Positions 4,409 through 48,619 of a DNA stretch of 64,000 bases are shown here, piece after piece. The notes below the pieces were generated by a model. That model was not told the origin of the DNA. It made no database searches and worked only from the letters and a program-made list of their open reading frames with translations. Each line of letters starts with the position of its first letter. Positions within the stretch are counted from its first letter, which is position 1. The position numbers and the translations under genes are program-made. The DNA is from an uncultured Candidatus Binatia bacterium (lineage in GTDB: Bacteria; Desulfobacterota; Binatia; UBA9968; JAJDTQ01): positions 2,432,001 to 2,496,000 of the forward strand of contig OZ251459.1 in assembly GCA_965242525.1 (NCBI GenBank). Reading direction: 5' to 3'.

Positions 4409-5788
4409 ATGGCGGACGTGACCGAGAACTTTCGCAAGCTCCCGCCCCAGAACCTGGAGGCGGAGGCGTCGATCCTCGGCGGCGTGCTGCTGGACAACGA
4501 GTCCATGAACATCGTGGTGGAGCTGGTGAAGTTCGACGACCTGTACCGGGACTCGCACCGCAAGATCTACCGGGCCATGGTGGACCTCTGGGAACGCAGC
4601 GAGCCGGTGGACCTCATCACCCTGAGCGACCACATGAAGGCCAAGGGCGAGCTGGAGTCCGTCGGCGGCTCCGCCTACCTGGCCGAACTCGCGACCCAGA
4701 TCCCCACCGCGGCCAACATCGCCCACTACGCGCGCATCGTGCGGGACAAGGCCATACTGCGCCACCTGATCCGGGCCTCCACCGACATCGCCACACGGGG
4801 GCTGGAGGAAAGGGGCGACGTCGATACCTTCCTGGACGACGCGGAACGCGCCATCTTCGACATCTCGGAAAAACGCATCGGGGCCTCCTTCGTGAAGGTC
4901 GGCGACGTCATGATGGACGCCATCAAGAAGGTCGAGACGCTCTACAACCGCAAGGAGATGGTGACCGGAGTGGCCACCGGCTACCGGGACCTGGACCTGT
5001 TGACCGCGGGGTTCCAGCCGTCGGACCTGTTGATCGTCGCGGGGCGGCCGGCCATGGGGAAGACCGCGTTCGCCCTCAACGTCGCGGCCAACGCCTCGCT
5101 GCACCAGGGCGTGGGCGTGGCGGTCTTCTCACTGGAGATGGCCACGGAGCAACTGGTGCTGAGGCTGCTTTGCTCGGAGGCGAGGGTGGATCATGCCCGG
5201 CTCCGCACCGGCCACCTGAAGGAAAGCGAGTTCCCGGAGCTGGTGACGGCCGCGGGGAGGCTCAGGGACGCGCCGGTCTATATCGACGACACGCCCGCGT
5301 TGTCGGTGCTGGAGGTCCGGGCCAAGACCCGGCGGCTGTTGCGGGACAAGTCCAGCAAGCTGGGCCTGGTGGTCATCGACTACCTCCAGCTCATGCGCGG
5401 CCACGGCGATTCGCCCAACCGCGAGCAGGAGATCTCGGAGATCTCGCGCTCCCTCAAGGCCCTCGCCAAGGAGCTGAGCGTTCCGGTGGTGGCCATCTCC
5501 CAGCTCAACCGGCGGGTGGAGGAGCGGAGCGACAAGCGCCCGGTCATGGCCGACCTGCGGGAGTCCGGCGCCATCGAGCAGGACGCCGACGTGATCATGT
5601 TCGTGTACCGGGACGATGCCTACGACCCGAAGAAGAACCCGGGCCTGGCCGAGGTCATCGTGGCCAAGCAGCGCAACGGCCCGGTGGACACGGTGCAACT
5701 CGCCTTCCTCAAGGAATACACCCGCTTCGAGGACTATTCGGGACGCGACGACGAGGGTTACTCGGACGCCGAAGCCGAGGAGTATTAG
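4409..5788 (+). CDS. dnaB: replicative DNA helicase
   Basis: PPQNLEAE, AGRPAMGKT, IDYLQLM, DLRESGAIEQDAD, KQRNGP. Confidence 0.98.
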   Translation: MADVTENFRKLPPQNLEAEASILGGVLLDNESMNIVVELVKFDDLYRDSHRKIYRAMVDLWERSEPVDLITLSDHMKAKGELESVGGSAYLAELATQIPTAANIAHYARIVRDKAILRHLIRASTDIATRGLEERGDVDTFLDDAERAIFDISEKRIGASFVKVGDVMMDAIKKVETLYNRKEMVTGVATGYRDLDLLTAGFQPSDLLIVAGRPAMGKTAFALNVAANASLHQGVGVAVFSLEMATEQLVLRLLCSEARVDHARLRTGHLKESEFPELVTAAGRLRDAPVYIDDTPALSVLEVRAKTRRLLRDKSSKLGLVVIDYLQLMRGHGDSPNREQEISEISRSLKALAKELSVPVVAISQLNRRVEERSDKRPVMADLRESGAIEQDADVIMFVYRDDAYDPKKNPGLAEVIVAKQRNGPVDTVQLAFLKEYTRFEDYSGRDDEGYSDAEAEEY

Positions 5789-5791
5789 GAG

Positions 5792-5820
5792 GGTTTCCCC
5801 GCACGCGCGGGGATAGACTC
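5792..5820 (+). CRISPR. solitary type I-E-like CRISPR repeat R1
   Basis: GGTTTCCCCGCACGCGCGGGGATAGACTC: 29 nt, CCCCGC/GCGGGG hairpin with 4-nt loop and ATAGACTC handle, resembling the I-E consensus; 3 nt after the dnaB stop. Confidence 0.65.
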
Positions 5821-6064
5821 GAACCCGTCCGCACGCCGATAGCAATACGGGTTTATGGCGACGACGGGATATGTTTACTTGGGCGCGCCAATGGAGATCC
5901 TGCGGGAGAGTGGCCGGACTGGGCAGACGGGCGCGCCAAACGACGGCTACCCAGCCGGTATCCGGGGGAGCGTGCAACCAGCTATGTAGCCACGACTGGG
6001 CGGTTTTCAAGGCTTCGGAACTTGCCGGAATGCGGCCGGCCGTCTTCGGAGTAAGGGAAGGGAA

Positions 6065-6262
6065 ATGGCAAAGGGGAAACTGGTTTGGCATCGACACAAG
6101 CGGACCGAAGGCACGGCCGTTGTTTGCGGCGCCAGTGTCAAGCGCGCTCGGGCTCGGGTGGAAGCCTGGTCCGATGTTTCCTGCATGGTTTGCATACGCA
6201 AAGGGCATGAAAGCGGGGAATACCCTTATGGGCAAGCGCCCGAAGAGGACAACCGGCAATAA
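6065..6262 (+). CDS. small Cys/His-containing (possible Zn-binding) hypothetical protein
   Basis: 65 aa, purine-rich RBS (GGGAAGGGAA), HxH..C..W..VxCxxC pattern. Confidence 0.55.
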   Translation: MAKGKLVWHRHKRTEGTAVVCGASVKRARARVEAWSDVSCMVCIRKGHESGEYPYGQAPEEDNRQ

Positions 6263-6336
6263 TGTATGTACTCCCTTACGATCACTTTGGTTCGATGGCA
6301 ACTATAATCGGAACCTTAACAGGTTCCGGCAGGCCG

Positions 6337-6407
6337 TGGCGCCGGAAGCATTCACGCTACTCTCATGCCTGCGGGCGAGCGCGGGGGTCGTGGCCCGCCC
6401 GGCGCCA
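6337..6407 (+). ncRNA. putative structured tRNA-like small RNA, copy 1
   Basis: TGGCGCCGG/CCGGCGCCA closing stem, GCC-TGCG-GGC hairpin, GCGGG/CCCGC stem; homologous to 8285-8355 and 8645-8712; TATAAT at 6303. Confidence 0.55.
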
Positions 6408-6408
6408 C

Positions 6409-6750
6409 TCACCACTTTCCCTCTTGTCTATCGGACCTTCTTGAACCTTCGGCGGGCGACCCTGATGTCGCAATCTCGCCCGCGAAGTCGTCCACCAACT
6501 GAAAGGCGGCCTGCGCTCCTTGGACCGATCCGGCGACGGTCTCCAAGAACGCCTCCAGCGTCTGCGTGTCGACGCCGAGGACACGACTGACGAGGTTACG
6601 GACGCCGTTGCTGAGCGAAGAAGCCAGACTGGTCAATCCGACAGCCGCCGGCAGCGGGGACACCGACTTCGAGGCTCTGAGGACCTTCTTCAGCGATCCG
6701 GAGAAGTGATCGACGAAACGCAGGATCGCGCGCAGATTCAGGTCAGCCAT
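6409..6750 (-). pseudogene. phage tape-measure protein N-terminal fragment A
   Basis: MADLNLRAILRFVDHFSGSLKKV... LETVAGSVQGAQAAFQLVDDFA resembles TMP N-termini; truncated near 6480. Confidence 0.55.
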
Positions 6751-6786
6751 GGTTGACTTTCAGGGTGGGAGGCATATATTCACAGT

Positions 6787-6960
6787 ATGGATTTCATCAT
6801 CGGCATCGTGCTCATCTGGATCGCCGTGAAGCTCTGGAGGATCGCCAAGAAACTGGAGCGGGTGGTGGAGGTGATGACAAGCATCGATCCCGACGACCTC
6901 GATGCGACGTTTAGGGCGCTAGACGAAATCGACCCACCTGCGAAGTCCGCTCCGCATTGA
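6787..6960 (+). CDS. small single-TM membrane protein (moron-like 1)
   Basis: Manual translation MDFIIGIVLIWIAVKLWRIAKKLERVVEVMTSIDPDDLDATFRALDEIDPPAKSAPH (57 aa, below ORF-track cutoff); preceded by TTGACT-N16-TATATT. Confidence 0.65.
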   Translation: MDFIIGIVLIWIAVKLWRIAKKLERVVEVMTSIDPDDLDATFRALDEIDPPAKSAPH

Positions 6961-7186
6961 GCGCCTCACTCGCCCCGTCCTCCATCCACATCAACCCGTC
7001 CAGGGTCTCCGGCGCCAGAGGCAGCAGCCCCGACAGGTCCAACAGCGCCCGCCCCCTGGGTTCAGTCGAGGCCCACGCCACCGGCCCGAAGCCGGCTCCA
7101 ATCAAGCCTCTCTCGGCCGACTTCACCGACTCTTGCGTCTGGTCCCGGCCACGGATGCTGATGAGCGCGGCGAGATTCGTGGCCAT
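6911..7186 (-). pseudogene. chimeric ORF: tape-measure N-terminus B fused to tail-chaperone-like (DUF1799-like) C-terminus A
   Basis: MATNLAALISIRGRDQTQESVKSAERGL joined to ...LDLSGLLPLAPETLDGLMWMEDGASEALN. Confidence 0.5.
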
Positions 7187-7220
7187 TGACTTGATTCCTC
7201 TGGTGCTCTATACGGGAGCC

Positions 7221-7439
7221 ATGAGAGTCAGGATCGACCTTGATTTGGGCGGGGTCCTTAGCTGCATCGGCGCCATGCTTTACGTCTTGGTGACCGGGAT
7301 CGTGCTGTTCAGCGCCGTGCTCCTCATGGCGGACGGCGTCCGCTTCTCGCTTCCCACCATCCTGATGCTGAGCCTGCTGGGCACGCTCGTCGTGCCGGCT
7401 GTGCGCTACATCGTCCGGTTCAATCGCTACGGCAGTTGA
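7221..7439 (+). CDS. small two-TM membrane protein (moron-like 2)
   Basis: MRVRIDLDLGGVLSCIGAMLYVLVTGIVLFSAVLLM...LLGTLVVPAVRYIVRFNRYGS; preceded by TTGACT-N17-TATACG. Confidence 0.65.
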   Translation: MRVRIDLDLGGVLSCIGAMLYVLVTGIVLFSAVLLMADGVRFSLPTILMLSLLGTLVVPAVRYIVRFNRYGS

Positions 7440-7578
7440 GCGCCGCGGCCGCGCCTTCCGCCATCCACATCAACCCGTCCAGCGTGTCCCGTTCCAGTGG
7501 CAGCAGGCCCGCCATGTCGAGGGTCGCTCGCACTCCGGGCCAGTCCAGACGCCAGATCACGTAGCCCGTCTGCCCGAG
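7420..7578 (-). pseudogene. tail-chaperone-like (DUF1799-like) C-terminal fragment B
   Basis: LGQTGYVIWRLDWPGVRATLDMAGLLPLERDTLDGLMWMAEGAAAALN; homologous to fragment A; abuts CRISPR repeat R2. Confidence 0.55.
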
Positions 7579-7579
7579 A

Positions 7580-7608
7580 GGTTCCCCCGCACGTGCAGGG
7601 ATAGACTC
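7580..7608 (+). CRISPR. solitary type I-E-like CRISPR repeat R2
   Basis: GGTTCCCCCGCACGTGCAGGGATAGACTC, 3 mismatches to R1, same orientation. Confidence 0.65.
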
Positions 7609-7609
7609 G

Positions 7610-7877
7610 GCGCGGACCGGAGGTCCGTTCCGGTCCCGCGGGTGAGGTCGAATACGGCCTCGGCCGCCTCCTGGGTCGGCGTGGCCTGCAACGCGGTGTC
7701 CGCAATGCGACCGATCCGCCGGATGATGCCTATGCCGCCCAGGACGGTCAGGGCGTCGGCGCAGTACTTGCCGATGTTGCCGGCCAGGCGGCGGAAGCGC
7801 TTGTCGGCCGAATCCGTCCCCGCCTTGGTCCTGTCCAAGGCTTCGAGGACCGCCCCGAATCTTATGGGATCAGCCAC
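7610..7877 (-). pseudogene. phage tape-measure protein N-terminal fragment C
   Basis: VADPIRFGAVLEALDRTKAGTDSADKRFRRL...QEAAEAVFDLTRGTGTDL; cut off at repeat R2. Confidence 0.5.
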
Positions 7878-7913
7878 TTGACACCAGTTCCTTCGATGGC
7901 TATTGGGATAGGC

Positions 7914-8093
7914 ATGGCAACCATCGCCGAGTTCGTCCTGCGGGTAGGGTTCGCCGTGGCGCTGATCTTCGCCTCGCCGTTTCTGCTGCTCTTCATCTTG
8001 AGCTACCAGGAACATCCCGAGTTGGCCTTGATGTCCGGCGGAATAGCTGCATGGCTGCTCATGAAGATCTTCGTGCCGCGGCGGTATCAGTGA
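7914..8093 (+). CDS. small two-TM membrane protein (moron-like 3)
   Basis: MATIAEFVLRVGFAVALIFASPFLLLFILSYQEHPELALMSGGIAAWLLMKIFVPRRYQ; preceded by TTGACA-N17-TATTGG. Confidence 0.65.
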   Translation: MATIAEFVLRVGFAVALIFASPFLLLFILSYQEHPELALMSGGIAAWLLMKIFVPRRYQ

Positions 8094-8099
8094 TCCGCC

Positions 8100-8160
8100 T
8101 CATGTGACCTTCCGGTTCAGCGCATCATCGACCAAGACGAAGTACTCCAGCCCAACAAAC
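8100..8160 (-). pseudogene. short tail-chaperone-like C-terminal fragment C
   Basis: TFVGLEYFVLVDDALNRKVT* occupies the same position relative to the moron as fragments A/B and aligns weakly with TLDGLMWM..ALN. Confidence 0.35.
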
Positions 8161-8284
8161 GTCCTCCAGGACGGACCCGAGACCTACCTGCTCGCGCTGC
8201 ACCGCATGGAGGAATACATCCTCGCCGCCGCTCGCCGGAAACCGAAGAAAATCAGGCAGGGAAGTCGAAAAGCTGTTGAGATGA

Positions 8285-8355
8285 GGCGCTGGGCGGGCCA
8301 CAACCCCCGCGCTCGCCCGCAGGCATGAGAGTATTGCGAATATGCTTCCAGCGCC
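8285..8355 (-). ncRNA. putative structured tRNA-like small RNA, copy 2
   Basis: GGCGCTGG/CCAGCGCC stem; promoter TTGACA(8391-8386)-N17-TAGGTT(8368-8363) lies 7 nt upstream. Confidence 0.6.
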
Positions 8356-8469
8356 AGCCCGGAACCTAACCCGGACCGCCGCAGTTGTCAATCAGAAGGT
8401 TGGCTTCTTGCGGCTTTTGTGTGGGCAGGATTTACGGCGTAGGTACGGCGAGGTTGAGGGAAGGAGTCG

Positions 8470-8602
8470 TCTACCGGGGAAGGCGTGGCCTTCGACCCCT
8501 AGCCGGGGCAGGAGCGGTTGGAGTGGCGGCGCTCCGGCAGGGTATTGCTACGTGGGAGTCGAGATCGACCCTCTATTTGCAGAGGTGGCTAGGCAGCAGC
8601 TA
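8470..8602 (+). pseudogene. frameshifted remnant of amino-DNA-methyltransferase C-terminus
   Basis: Pieces FDP / AGAGAVGVAALRQG / YCYVGVEIDPLFAEVARQQL in different frames match the DPFxGSGTT..AA..GR..IGxEID motif I region. Confidence 0.5.
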
Positions 8603-8644
8603 TCTCTGATTGACAATGGCGACGGCCTGGTTTAGGTTCCGGGC

Positions 8645-8712
8645 TGGCGCTGGAAGCAGCACTACTCTCATGCCTGCGGGCGAGCGCGGGGATTGCGTCC
8701 CGCCCAGCGCCA
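8645..8712 (+). ncRNA. putative structured tRNA-like small RNA, copy 3
   Basis: TGGCGCTGG/CCAGCGCCA stem; promoter TTGACA(8610)-N17-TAGGTT(8633) directly upstream. Confidence 0.6.
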
Positions 8713-8776
8713 CTTCCTCGCTTTTCAAGTTTCTCCTGCTCTCCCACCTTCTTCCATTTCCGGCGAGCGGCTCGGA

Positions 8777-8805
8777 GGTTCCCCCGCACGTGCGGGGATA
8801 GGCCT
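8777..8805 (+). CRISPR. solitary type I-E-like CRISPR repeat R3 (3'-degenerate)
   Basis: GGTTCCCCCGCACGTGCGGGGATAGGCCT; perfect hairpin, diverged 3' handle. Confidence 0.6.
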
Positions 8806-8864
8806 TTGGTTGCCGGGTCCGTGCTCGGACGTCGAGGACGTATTCGGAGTTTGCGGCCGGGAAT

Positions 8865-9296
8865 CTACGCTGCCCGGTCCTCGACCACGAGGCTGCGTCC
8901 GATGGCTCGCAGGGCCTTCTCCACTTGGCTGATGTGAGAGCGGTGGCCGGGGTTCAGCAGCTTGCGGACGGCGCCCTCGCTCAGCCCCAGGCGAGCGGCG
9001 AGGGCGACCTTGGTGACGCCTTGGCTGCGCATCGCCGAATAGAGGGCGACCTTGGCCGCGACGATGGGAGGAACCGCGACGAGTTCCTGGCCTTGGGCAG
9101 CGGCGCTTGGAGCCGGGACGTCCTCACGGCCATGAACGTAGGCGCTCAAGGCGGCCGCCAAGGCATCCTCGGCCATAGTCAGCGCCTCGGCCCGATCCTC
9201 GCCGCAGGTGAGCGCTTCAGGCACGTCCGGGAAAGAGACGGAGAAACCGCCGCCGTCCGCCTCGGGAGCCAGCACGCAGGGGTAGGCGTAGCGCAT
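8865..9296 (-). CDS. hicB: HicB family antitoxin with C-terminal HTH
   Basis: MRYAYPCVLAPEADGGGFSVSFPDVPEALTCGEDRAEALTMAEDAL; C-terminal TKVALAARLGLSEGAVRKLL. Confidence 0.9.
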   Translation of the reverse strand: MRYAYPCVLAPEADGGGFSVSFPDVPEALTCGEDRAEALTMAEDALAAALSAYVHGREDVPAPSAAAQGQELVAVPPIVAAKVALYSAMRSQGVTKVALAARLGLSEGAVRKLLNPGHRSHISQVEKALRAIGRSLVVEDRAA

Positions 9297-9457
9297 CAGA
9301 AGTCCTCCTTCGGGATGTCCAGTTGCTTCAGCATGGCCTGAAAGGCCCCAAGCTTCAGTTCTCCATGTTTGACGGTCGTGCGACGGTCGCCAACGTAGAG
9401 CACGCCATGGTTGCCCTTCCCGTGGCGTGGATCGAAACGGAACGGCTTTCCGACTTT
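9296..9457 (-). pseudogene. hicA: HicA toxin lacking its N-terminus
   Basis: KVGKPFRFDPRHGKGNHGVLYVGDRRTTVKHGELKLGAFQAMLKQLDI; stop overlaps hicB ATG; in-frame TAA directly upstream, no start codon. Confidence 0.7.
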
Positions 9458-9493
9458 TTAGAAGGCTTTGGCTACGGGAAGGGGAGAACCACC

Positions 9494-9748
9494 GTGACGG
9501 AGTTTGAAGCCGCAACGCTCGCACTACAGCAGCAACAGCTTTGGGCCGCTCTCGCCGTCCCCCTTGTCGCCCTCATTGTCGGAGCCGGGCAGGTCATCGT
9601 CGTCTCTGTCGGTATCCGGGTCATGCGGCGCACATCGGATCAGAGGGAGAAGCGCGAAGACGCCCGCCACGCCGAAGCGATGGAAGCGCTGCGACAGCAG
9701 GCCGAAGCCTTGCGCGTCCTCATCGAACGGACCGCGCCTCGCCGGTAA
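9494..9748 (+). CDS. small TM + coiled-coil hypothetical protein
   Basis: GTG with GGAG RBS; TM segment then REDARHAEAMEAL..LIERTAP; paralogue of 9962-10300. Confidence 0.7.
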   Translation: MTEFEAATLALQQQQLWAALAVPLVALIVGAGQVIVVSVGIRVMRRTSDQREKREDARHAEAMEALRQQAEALRVLIERTAPRR

Positions 9749-9961
9749 CGGCCGGCGCCGCCGGGGAAGGGAGACAGCGCTACGGGAACCACCGGCCGCT
9801 ACGGCCCACGGAGACGGAAACCGAAGTAGCGGCCATGCCTGCGTTGGCAGGTCCGCCGCGGAAAACAAACCCTGCATTCGTCTCTGTCGGGGGAGTCGCA
9901 GACGGGTCGCGCCGCGCAACGATGGCCCCGGATTCTGCGGGCGGTTCCGGTGCGGCGGCGG

Positions 9962-48192: not shown

Positions 48193-48570
48193 ACAGTGGA
48201 TCAGACGGTCGCTTCCGCGGCGACGCGGGAGAGGAAAGTCCGGACTCCGCAGGACAGGGTGGCCGTTAACGGCGGCCTCGAGTGATCGAGGGAAAGTGCC
48301 ACAGAAAACATACCGCCCGACCGGCTCCGGGTCCAACCGGACCGTCGGGCAAGGTTGAAAAGGCGAGGTAAGAGCTCACCGGTCCGTCAGTGATGACGGG
48401 CGCATGGTAAACCCCACCCGGAGCAAGACCGAATAGGAGGGTCGGGTCGTCCGCCCGGAACCCCTCGGGTATGGTCGCTGGACCCCGTGAGCAATCACGG
48501 GGCAAGATGAATGACCGTCCCGCTTCCTGTTGGGAAGCGCGACAGAATCCGGCTTAACGATCCGCTGTCC
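48193..48570 (+). ncRNA. rnpB: RNase P RNA (type A)
   Basis: GAGGAAAGTCCGGACTCC, GAAAGTGCCACAGAAA, GGTAAACCCCACCCGGAGCAAG, ACAGAATCCGGCTTA; ends pair. Confidence 0.95.
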
Positions 48571-48619
48571 CCCATCCCCCGTCGGGGTTCCCCCTTCAGC
48601 CCCGCCGTACCCCCCCCCC

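Follow-up and report, generated by a model that had tools for sequence, protein, structure and literature searches.

A 64,000-nucleotide (nt) stretch of an uncultured Candidatus Binatia chromosome (GenBank assembly GCA_965242525.1, contig OZ251459.1, positions 2,432,001 to 2,496,000; hereafter the window) carries three copies of a small gene whose predicted product is a tRNA-shaped RNA. Its covariation marks the RNA as a new and well-supported family of structured RNAs, with a pseudoknot as tertiary contact and absent from Rfam, and in other genomes the RNA gene converges on the end of a gene for an RNase-like domain that can follow a Phage_Mu_F (MuF) domain. We give an even chance to the reading that the RNA is an RNA antitoxin or immunity decoy for this RNase domain, most simply a tRNA-like substrate mimic. 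Below, G000 is the window's own genome (4.23 Mb), congeners are genomes of the same genus (n = 27), and L-numbers denote individual loci.

The RNA family and its fold

The original prediction had placed three copies of a ~70 nt RNA in the window, and that is the size and place at which we find them: an identical 29-nt core, TACTCTCATGCCTGCGGGCGAGCGCGGGG, occurs exactly three times, at 6358-6386 (+), 8305-8333 (-) and 8663-8691 (+), a result reached in 0 of 100 shuffles, and no further site with three or fewer mismatches exists in G000. The copies and their adjoining signals are listed below, with scores from a covariance model built from the three copies, whose E-values are rough.

Copy 1: 6337..6407, plus strand; closing stem P1 6338-6345/6399-6406; 103.8 bits
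Inner parts of copy 1: D-like region 6346-6361; P2 6362-6379; T-like stem 6381-6385/6394-6398
Kissing pairs of copy 1: CACG 6353-6356 with CGUG 6389-6392
Copy 2: 8285..8356, minus strand; P1 8355-8348/8292-8285; kissing pairs CGCA/UGUG; 100.4 bits
Copy 3: 8645..8712, plus strand; P1 8646-8653/8704-8711; kissing pairs (A)GCA/UGC(G); 98.8 bits
Promoter-like site of copy 2: 8363..8391, minus strand; TTGACA-N17-TAGGTT, -10 ending 7 nt before P1
Promoter-like site of copy 3: 8610..8638, plus strand; TTGACA-N17-TAGGTT, -10 ending 7 nt before P1
Hairpin of 8 bp just upstream of copy 1: 6309..6328; terminator-like if read on the minus strand

Differences among the three copies are confined to one compensatory closing-stem pair (C-G vs. 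U-A, the stems being GGCGCCGG/CCGGCGCC in copy 1 and GGCGCTGG/CCAGCGCC in copies 2 and 3), the two loops and the flanks, and a GCGGG/CCCGC stem directly abuts the closing stem, all of which agrees with the covarying closing stem, the stacked second stem and the loop-borne differences first described. A larger inverted repeat has copies 2 and 3 as its arms and also takes in their promoter regions and ~30 nt downstream; the promoter-like site of copy 2 falls within its segment 8343-8396 / 8605-8658. Single-sequence minimum-free-energy (MFE) folds of the window copies recover the proposed stems. Comparison with Rfam and with tRNAs, as first proposed, returned no known family for the RNA: ARAGORN found no tRNA or tmRNA gene in the window, cmscan of the window at the Rfam gathering thresholds matched only RNase P RNA (48193-48572) and no C4, YrlA or small ribozyme family, a search over 5700-9000 at E ≤ 10 gave five chance-level matches (best 19.8 bits), none of them to C4, and RNA loci from other genomes had no Rfam match either. 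We predict that the three window copies are real small cloverleaf RNA genes.

Run widely, the covariance model also bore out the expectation of further relatives with covariation, 41 distinct sequences in all, from Binatia, Alphaproteobacteria and other metagenome-assembled genomes (MAGs). A fourth, diverged copy lies in G000 itself (C1:667214-667295), and 6 of the 27 congeners have copies; a sample of 74 genomes from other genera around this one yielded none. A pattern search through public genomes supplied further loci, with strong matches in 23 of the 80 that were retrieved in full and in 6 of the 34 short ones; strong matches were also present in 6 of 7 metagenome loci. By record title, the family is carried by Candidatus Binatia, many alphaproteobacterial MAGs (Defluviicoccus, Rhodospirillales, Paracoccaceae, Rhodobacteraceae, Amylibacter), one Arenicellales MAG and one Vicinamibacteraceae MAG. 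Alphaproteobacterial scores reach 98 bits, level with the window copies, which indicates horizontal spread of the RNA family. The five alphaproteobacterial chromosomes searched hold between one and seven copies each, and orphan clusters occur in this class: five copies lie within 2.3 kb at L055 (genome G102, 213-2473) and a tandem pair 159 nt apart at L077 (1973-2209), both without an RNase gene nearby and set amid small hydrophobic open reading frames (ORFs) and repetitive extragenic palindromic (REP)-like repeats, resembling the window island.

Structure was counted on an alignment of the 41 distinct sequences, in which 99.1% of cells pair (slid registers of the stems give only 42-48%), six pairs change on both sides and the covariation score is reached by 0 of 500 shuffles. 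As the sequences are related to one another, this and the other shuffle tests on the alignment overstate significance, and the several independent pair types found at single positions are the stronger argument for the predicted structure. The closing stem P1 has 8 bp, five of them with both sides changed, the 5-bp T-like stem has one CG<->UA pair, and the middle hairpin, CUC-AU-GCC-UNCG-GGC-GAG, is essentially invariant across the alignment. The two variable loops, for which a possible loop-loop pairing had been suggested, do pair with each other as a covarying 4-bp kissing helix, to which the T-like loop contributes its positions -5 to -2 and the first region 4 nt that precede its own 3' side by a fixed distance. 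This helix is paired in 94.5% of cells (81.1 +/- 1.6 in 2000 partner shuffles, none of which reach it; slid registers 20-45%), and 32 of 41 sequences form all four pairs, a number that is at most 26 in the shuffles. The pair types seen at one and the same position include CG 27 times and UA 10 times, or AU 29, GC 4 and CG 4 times, and the combinations are these:

CGUA/UACG: 10 distinct sequences
CGCA/UGUG: 5 distinct sequences
AGCA/UGCG: 4 distinct sequences
CGCG/CGUG: 3 distinct sequences
CACA/UGUG: 3 distinct sequences
CGCA/UGCG: 3 distinct sequences
CGCC/GGCG: 3 distinct sequences
CACG/CGUG: 1 distinct sequence
Six further combinations: 9 distinct sequences together

The short D-like stem, by which the first region is closed, consists of an A/G-U/C pair (41 of 41 sequences), a G/U-C/A pair (39 of 41), a C.C or C.A mismatch and an A-U pair (37 of 41), with 80 of 82 cells paired where shuffles average 54.7 and 0 of 2000 reach the observed value. 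G.U cells number 32 vs. 5 A.C cells, and the functional strand is therefore the one first named. The predicted RNA is supported as a four-helix, tRNA-shaped cloverleaf with a Watson-Crick elbow and no anticodon loop. It is like a tRNA in having four helices in cloverleaf order, a closing stem on a 5-bp T-like stem, pairing between D-like and T-like loops and a length of ~75 nt; unlike a tRNA, it has a closing stem of 8 bp rather than 7 and 13 stacked pairs rather than 12, an elbow of four Watson-Crick pairs, a short hairpin with a 4-nt UNCG loop for an anticodon arm, no conserved CCA or discriminator base, and a T-like loop of at least 8 nt without GTTCRANYC, the T-loop pattern of tRNAs.

The family's upstream sequences support a predicted sigma-70-like promoter belonging to the RNA itself, with a start at or beside the first base of P1. 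For 36 of 43 distinct copies, the best -35/-10 match puts the end of the -10 hexamer 6-7 nt ahead of P1; most have TTG as the start of -35 and a spacer of 17 nt, and the mean score is 7.8 vs. 5.2 at a control position. The TTGACA-N17-TAGGTT sites reported before copies 2 and 3 were recovered at this spacing; a stricter promoter scan omits them, because TAGGTT matches three of six consensus positions. Copy 1 is without the family promoter and has instead a TATAAT ~29 nt upstream, with the 8-bp hairpin between.

The partner RNase-like gene and the orphan copies of the window

A hidden Markov model (HMM) of the partner domain, made from a protein alignment of 17 members, finds the domain immediately behind 21 of 46 RNA copies, each time on the convergent strand and either complete or truncated where the available DNA ends, and C-terminal stubs only lie behind four more, window copy 2 among them; behind the remaining 21, including window copies 1 and 3, the model finds nothing, and beside the copies it has no same-strand match. 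Where a domain gene is present (8 of 11 loci scanned), its stop codon lies -9 to +3 nt from the RNA 3' end. By analogy, this tail-to-tail position fits the slot where polymorphic-toxin loci keep immunity genes.

The shared domain is ~125 aa long, with S34, T37, A38, K40, D52-Y53-A54, D61, G63, F66, G75-F76, W84-R85 and H103 invariant and H45 and K89 conserved in at least 90% of rows, and 1047 cluster representatives match it at E ≤ 0.001. The domain is found either by itself or at the C-terminal end of MuF proteins, the minor head or pilot proteins of phages. Phage_Mu_F (PF04233) is N-terminal in 10 of 12 hand-picked long members, one of these ten being a MuF-domain-ADP-ribosyltransferase, and PT-TG in one; the proteins of L041 and L141 also carry Phage_Mu_F N-terminally. 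The AlphaFold2 model of the domain (pLDDT 90.1) runs from a strand through helices and a four-stranded antiparallel sheet to a helix at the C-terminus. In the PDB, Foldseek ranks the toxin BrnT, an RNase, first (E = 4.7e-3, probability 1.00; TM-score on the target 0.73), and 9 of the 44 listed rows are RelE/HigB/BrnT-type or contact-dependent inhibition (CDI) toxins. At E ≤ 5 Pfam, which includes PBECR models, gave nothing above chance level for any of the 17 members, and no curated PBECR profile matched. On the model, a RelE/BrnT-like (BECR) fold is probable, and the domain fits the MuF-C/PBECR domains, which Iyer et al. (2017, PMC5512222) describe as predicted RNase domains of phage polyvalent proteins. 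In cultured phages and plasmids blastn of the RNA gave no match, and matches to the domain were limited to prophages of Helicobacter and a single further virus record, with 26-29% identity. The only MuF homologue of G000 (C1 ~766.2-767.7 kb; L144 1713-3158, minus strand) has a different C-terminal domain, ADP-ribosyltransferase-like by eye, with no RNA nearby, and lies beside a large CRISPR (clusters of regularly interspaced, short palindromic repeats) array.

In a protein-first sample, 401 alphaproteobacterial genomes searched with the domain profile yielded 12 places that carry the domain, spread over 10 genomes. A convergent match of the RNA model abuts the end of the domain gene at L176 (58 bits), L167 (36 bits) and L166 (34 bits), and weakly at L171. 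Genome G296 has an intact gene without an adjacent RNA (L165) and a disrupted paralogue with one (L175/L176), an arrangement which fits action of the RNA in trans. At four distant relatives of the domain a different RNA-like element of ~100 nt, here termed class 2, occupies the same place, convergent at the end of the domain gene:

L169: 1885-1985, minus strand; class 2 element
L172: 1356-1452, plus strand; class 2 element
L173: 1367-1474, plus strand; class 2 element
L174: 1908-2016, minus strand; class 2 element

Every class 2 element has a long closing helix, whose sequence is unrelated from one element to the next; all share a UGACACGGUGAAAUUCUCC..CCGUAG block, and three also have, adjoining the closing helix, a GUGGG(G)UUC...CCCAC hairpin (form GUGGGGUUC..CCCCAC); at L174 the RNA is followed by an intrinsic terminator that lies between RNA and gene. 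Their single folds have closing stems of 7-13 bp, which MAFFT and RNAalifold misaligned (9 pairs, little covariation), and they have no Rfam match. We treat class 2 as a lead, a candidate and not an established family.

Among viral contigs the protein profile found two loci, L141 and L142; the wider protein alignment was too diverse for the viral scan, and a single-protein scan gave L141 only. At L141 the portal gene is followed by MuF::domain, by a weak convergent match of the RNA model right after the stop codon, and by the next gene of the head, which leaves no space beside MuF::domain for the gene of an immunity protein. This RNA analogue scores 15.7 bits (E = 0.019), and its MFE fold keeps the closing and T-like stems (z = +0.34). 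The analogue at L142, read by eye, is uncertain, its MFE fold being unsupportive, and a viral match to the core pattern at L140 was rejected as chance, having no covariance-model match. Pairs of domain and RNA also occur outside phage head modules, at L052, L089 and L017. One site is flanked by the same two genes in two genomes, congener G023 having the RNA and a standalone 161-aa domain gene and G000 the RNA only; this syntenic comparison of sequences shows loss of the putative toxin gene and retention of the RNA in G000.

The window copies are likewise orphans, since the RNase gene survives beside them only as stubs, and they are interspersed with solitary CRISPR repeats:

RNase-gene remnant, about the last 40 codons: 8143..8265, plus strand; tblastn E = 0.012, HMM positions 96-129, E = 2.3e-5
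Shorter stub behind copy 3 (..LRAARRKWKK..): 8713..8776, minus strand; read by eye against the domain consensus, HMM silent; runs into repeat R3
Similar stub behind copy 1 (ccttcttgaaccttcggcgggcgac): 6408..6470, minus strand; from alignment, HMM silent
Solitary type I-E-like CRISPR repeat R1: 5792..5821, plus strand; directly after the stop codon of a DnaB-like ORF
Solitary CRISPR repeat R2: 7580..7609, plus strand
Solitary CRISPR repeat R3: 8777..8806, plus strand; 65 nt downstream of copy 3, on the same strand

The remnant converges on copy 2 and its frame continues into the antisense of the RNA, while the copy 1 stub is now the 3' end of an unrelated 113-aa ORF (6409-6750). The repeats are GGTTCCCCCGCACGTGCGGGGATAG-like and these three are the only ones in the genome. 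Between the bounds of the locus, the DnaB-like ORF ending at 5788 and a HicB-like ORF at 8865-9524, they delimit two giant 'spacers' of 1.76 and 1.17 kb, filled by the RNA copies, gene stubs and three small divergent ORF pairs. Congener G009 has 102 copies of the repeat with a 61-nt period, ~1.3 kb after a Cas6e (PF08798) match on contig C59, and arrays of the same repeat are also present in G015, G014, G022, G026, G001 and G011; no Cas6e or Cas7e match was found in G000 and no Cas6e in G002 and G023. Since congeners keep full arrays, the window repeats are best described, on sequence comparison, as a decayed type I-E-like array of the chromosome itself. Contigs of four sequencing runs contain joints of repeat, ~24-34 nt and repeat; the sides of these joints consist of repeat sequence, and they place no array at the window locus. 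In G002, in another chromosomal neighbourhood (L143, repeats at 9959, 10150, 11290, 11530 and 11832), two RNA cassettes each lie between two repeats, 162 and ~211 nt apart. Such cassettes could have entered the array by recombination with repeat-bearing phage DNA, or by some form of capture.

Proposed role and alternatives

We propose that an RNA of ~75 nt would be transcribed from its own sigma-70-type promoter and fold so that the 8-bp closing stem stacks on the 5-bp T-like stem, the D-like and T-like loops make a four-pair elbow, and the invariant short hairpin replaces the anticodon arm. This RNA would then bind the RNase domain as an uncleavable substrate mimic, neutralising a presumably toxic enzyme and keeping it harmless in the producing cell, be it a lysogen, a cell assembling virions or the carrier of a standalone pair. 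The three window copies and the fourth elsewhere in G000 would be orphan antitoxin genes, either relics of lost pairs or retained protection against RNases injected by incoming phages. We favour this antitoxin reading because the fold is conserved and its hairpin invariant, the RNA has a promoter of its own and occupies the tail-to-tail slot, the RNA classes follow the domain subfamilies, and the RNA is retained when the protein gene decays. Tentatively, and as something we think somewhat unlikely to hold in full, these loci may represent an unrecognised toxin-antitoxin (TA) or immunity class, in which tRNA-shaped decoys act against MuF-borne RelE/BrnT-fold RNases, RNA classes diversify with RNase subfamilies (at least two seen), ~150-bp promoter-plus-RNA cassettes are captured as orphan immunity, and decayed CRISPR arrays serve as landing pad for a second RNA-based anti-phage layer.

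Several observations weigh against the antitoxin reading. Folding energies are not clearly below those of shuffles (z = -1.3 to -1.65 for the window copies, -0.6 to -1.65 overall), and for this reason the case for structure rests on covariation across the family. The assignment of the partner fold is weak, with no Foldseek match to the domain model at E ≤ 0.001 and no family in Pfam, PHROG or PADLOC that covers the domain itself. Some constraint unrelated to protein binding could account for the invariance of the 20-nt hairpin. In the protein-first sample L165, L168 and L170 have no convincing RNA beside the domain gene, and 21 of the 46 RNA copies, including the tandem pairs at L077 and L054, have no RNase gene nearby; with about half of the copies so placed, the RNA may have a life of its own. 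Finally, as the genes of class 1 (the RNA family of the window) converge without a terminator between them, the transcripts of RNA and RNase gene may overlap, and an antisense mechanism is possible.

Developed in full, such a mechanism would be that of a cis-antisense regulator like those of type I TA systems, in which either the transcript of the RNA extends into the 3' end of the RNase gene or the RNase mRNA traverses the RNA gene, the duplex between the two lowers the RNase, and the cloverleaf merely stabilises the antisense RNA. Its appeal lies in the convergent genes, the stop codon -9 to +3 nt from the RNA 3' end, the missing intrinsic terminator in class 1 and the protein frame that enters the RNA in antisense in P0008, P0012 and the remnant beside window copy 2; however, a duplex has no need for a tRNA-like fold, covarying tertiary pairs or a 20-nt invariant hairpin, orphan and tandem copies with intact promoters persist without a target gene, a terminator separates RNA from gene at L174, and the intact gene of G296 has no adjacent RNA. 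We judge this explanation unlikely. Equally compatible with the synteny is that the RNA is a substrate or cofactor, processed or carried by the RNase or guiding it (for example held by the C-terminal domain of MuF, packaged in the capsid and delivered together with it), or has a tRNA-like role in phage or host translation. The many RNA copies without an RNase gene speak for this, as does the MuF-C of phage Mu, which Iyer et al. (2017, PMC5512222) give as a predicted inactive, RNA-binding PBECR, but the standalone pairs outside head modules (L052, L089, L017) resemble a two-gene selfish module, and the domain shows little or no variation at residues that are characteristic of active BECR RNases (K40, H45, R85, K89, H103). 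A substrate or cofactor is improbable in our estimation.

The setting of the window copies raises two further explanations, to both of which we attach little weight. A CRISPR-linked role, in which a transcript of promoter, RNA and repeat acts on Cas proteins in the manner of a Racr, or is processed by Cas6e, is highly unlikely: copy 3 is 65 nt upstream of R3 on the same strand, RNA a and RNA b of G002 each lie between two repeats, the repeat is the true array repeat of Cas6e-bearing congeners and Racrs are known (PMC10651486, in part), yet the association with repeats is confined to G000 and G002, both without Cas6e and G000 also without Cas7e, copies 1 and 2 are not followed by a repeat, and none lies near the alphaproteobacterial copies inspected. 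Also very unlikely is that the G000 copies are inert leftovers, or that they form a recombination or insertion cassette which acts at the DNA level and does nothing as RNA there. The RNase gene is indeed reduced to stubs, copy 1 is without the family promoter, and the cassettes, which lie in a decayed CRISPR array, are truncated at differing distances past the RNA (~20 and 78 nt in G002, 65 nt in the window); against this, all three copies keep every helix with compensatory differences (CACG/CGUG, CGCA/UGUG, GCA/UGC), copies 2 and 3 keep a six-of-six -35 hexamer at the family's fixed distance, and the G.U pairs show one-strand selection. We also considered and rejected a retron or diversity-generating retroelement (no reverse transcriptase seen, and copies that differ by indels), an integron attC site (stems unlike attC), a CreT-like toxin RNA (no Shine-Dalgarno sequence before the internal AUG) and a riboswitch (most copies without a same-strand downstream gene).

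Known systems share some of these traits. The original prediction had compared the RNA with the C4 and CI immunity RNAs of phages P1/P7 and P4 and had proposed phage immunity RNAs or tRNA decoys of three specificities. Of this, the tRNA decoy is still the best reading, and the link to phage genes holds, the RNA family adjoining a MuF-associated RNase domain; the C4/CI analogy is not supported: the RNA has no Rfam family, C4 included, at E ≤ 10, and it is convergent with its partner and not upstream in an operon. C4 and CI RNAs are likewise small, structured, phage-linked and of tRNA-like flavour, but they are cut out of an operon leader and their loops pair with an mRNA target, whereas the RNA described here has its own promoter at +1 and loops that pair together. 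Nor are three specificities set by free loops supported, since the two loops are occupied by pairing with each other and their variation is thus mostly compensatory, not target-directed. Type I TA systems with a 3'-overlapping antisense RNA (TxpA/RatA, BsrG/SR4) also have convergent RNA and toxin genes; in those systems the toxins are membrane peptides of small size and the RNAs work through long duplexes, whereas the RNA described here has a conserved tertiary fold and an RNase domain as its partner. Type III antitoxins consist of direct repeats in tandem, which lie upstream of the toxin gene on its own strand and are excised by that toxin. The likeness to type III systems (ToxIN, CptIN, TenpIN; background in PMC13682666, in part) would be an endoRNase toxin neutralised directly by an adjacent structured RNA; the differences are a single cloverleaf unit, convergent and with its own promoter, a toxin that is probably RelE/BrnT-like and not of ToxN-type fold, and tandem RNA pairs (L077, L054) that have no toxin gene beside them. 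MuF polymorphic toxins, described with protein immunity by Jamet et al. (2017, PMC5576092), and MuF-C/PBECR proteins share the order of Phage_Mu_F followed by a C-terminal BECR-fold RNase-like domain, which also follows PT-TG, but here an RNA gene holds the slot of the immunity protein and no Pfam profile matches the domain. Racrs, or solitary repeat units (PMC10651486, in part), similarly combine solitary CRISPR repeats outside a normal array with a promoter-bearing small RNA gene beside them; here the repeats come from the chromosome's own decayed array, and the tRNA-shaped RNA is no repeat mimic.

A literature search, with subscription journals and supplements outside its scope, returned nothing linking an RNA to MuF-C/PBECR and no tRNA-shaped antitoxin, and the PBECR literature, in those parts that were accessible, including parts of PMC5512222 and of a 2026 BECR preprint, mentions no RNA partner. 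Should neutralisation of the RNase by the RNA hold true, the RNA would be the first known RNA antidote for a RelE-superfamily or MuF-borne toxin and a natural tRNA mimic serving as an enzyme inhibitor, and the function of the widespread, so far only predicted MuF-C/PBECR domains would become directly testable. The system is compact, with an RNA of 75 nt and a domain of 125 aa, and suits structural and synthetic work, and the orphan copies in decayed CRISPR arrays raise the question of whether hosts collect such RNAs for defence. We know of no earlier RNA antidote for a toxin of either kind. Regardless of function, a new structured RNA family and a second candidate class are ready for curation.

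Other features of the window and its genome

Between 6409 and 8093 the window has three successive modules of one layout, a minus-strand ORF of ~90-113 aa diverging from a hydrophobic plus-strand ORF of 57-72 aa, with a TTGAC(T/A)-type promoter-like site between the ORFs (the scan lists one at 6753-6780). The ends of two of the minus-strand ORFs are 76% alike over 104 nt (6957-7060 vs. 7436-7539), and the ORFs between the repeats matched no Pfam or PADLOC family. The HicB-like ORF that bounds the locus is on the minus strand (PF15919, E = 2.6e-7) and has no HicA beside it; at congener locus L035 a HicA-like ORF adjoins HicB, by reading of the translation. G000 has two other CRISPR arrays, whose repeats are unlike the solitary ones, at C1 435.9-439.4 kb (GGTTCCCGATCCCCATGAGGGGTAATGAG) and at C1 ~755-765 kb, the latter being the large array beside the MuF gene, with a 37-nt repeat beginning GTTTCCGGGGCGATTG. 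Its REP-like dispersed repeats include an element with CCGTTCGTCCTGAGCGTAGCG, found ~290 times, and another with TTTCGCGGGAATGA, found ~140 times. Elsewhere in the window, the RNase P RNA at 48193-48572 is on the plus strand and of bacterial class A (293.9 bits), and at 2-1356, on the minus strand, the translation reads as a cytosine-5 DNA methyltransferase-like ORF, followed by a Vsr-type mismatch endonuclease-like ORF.

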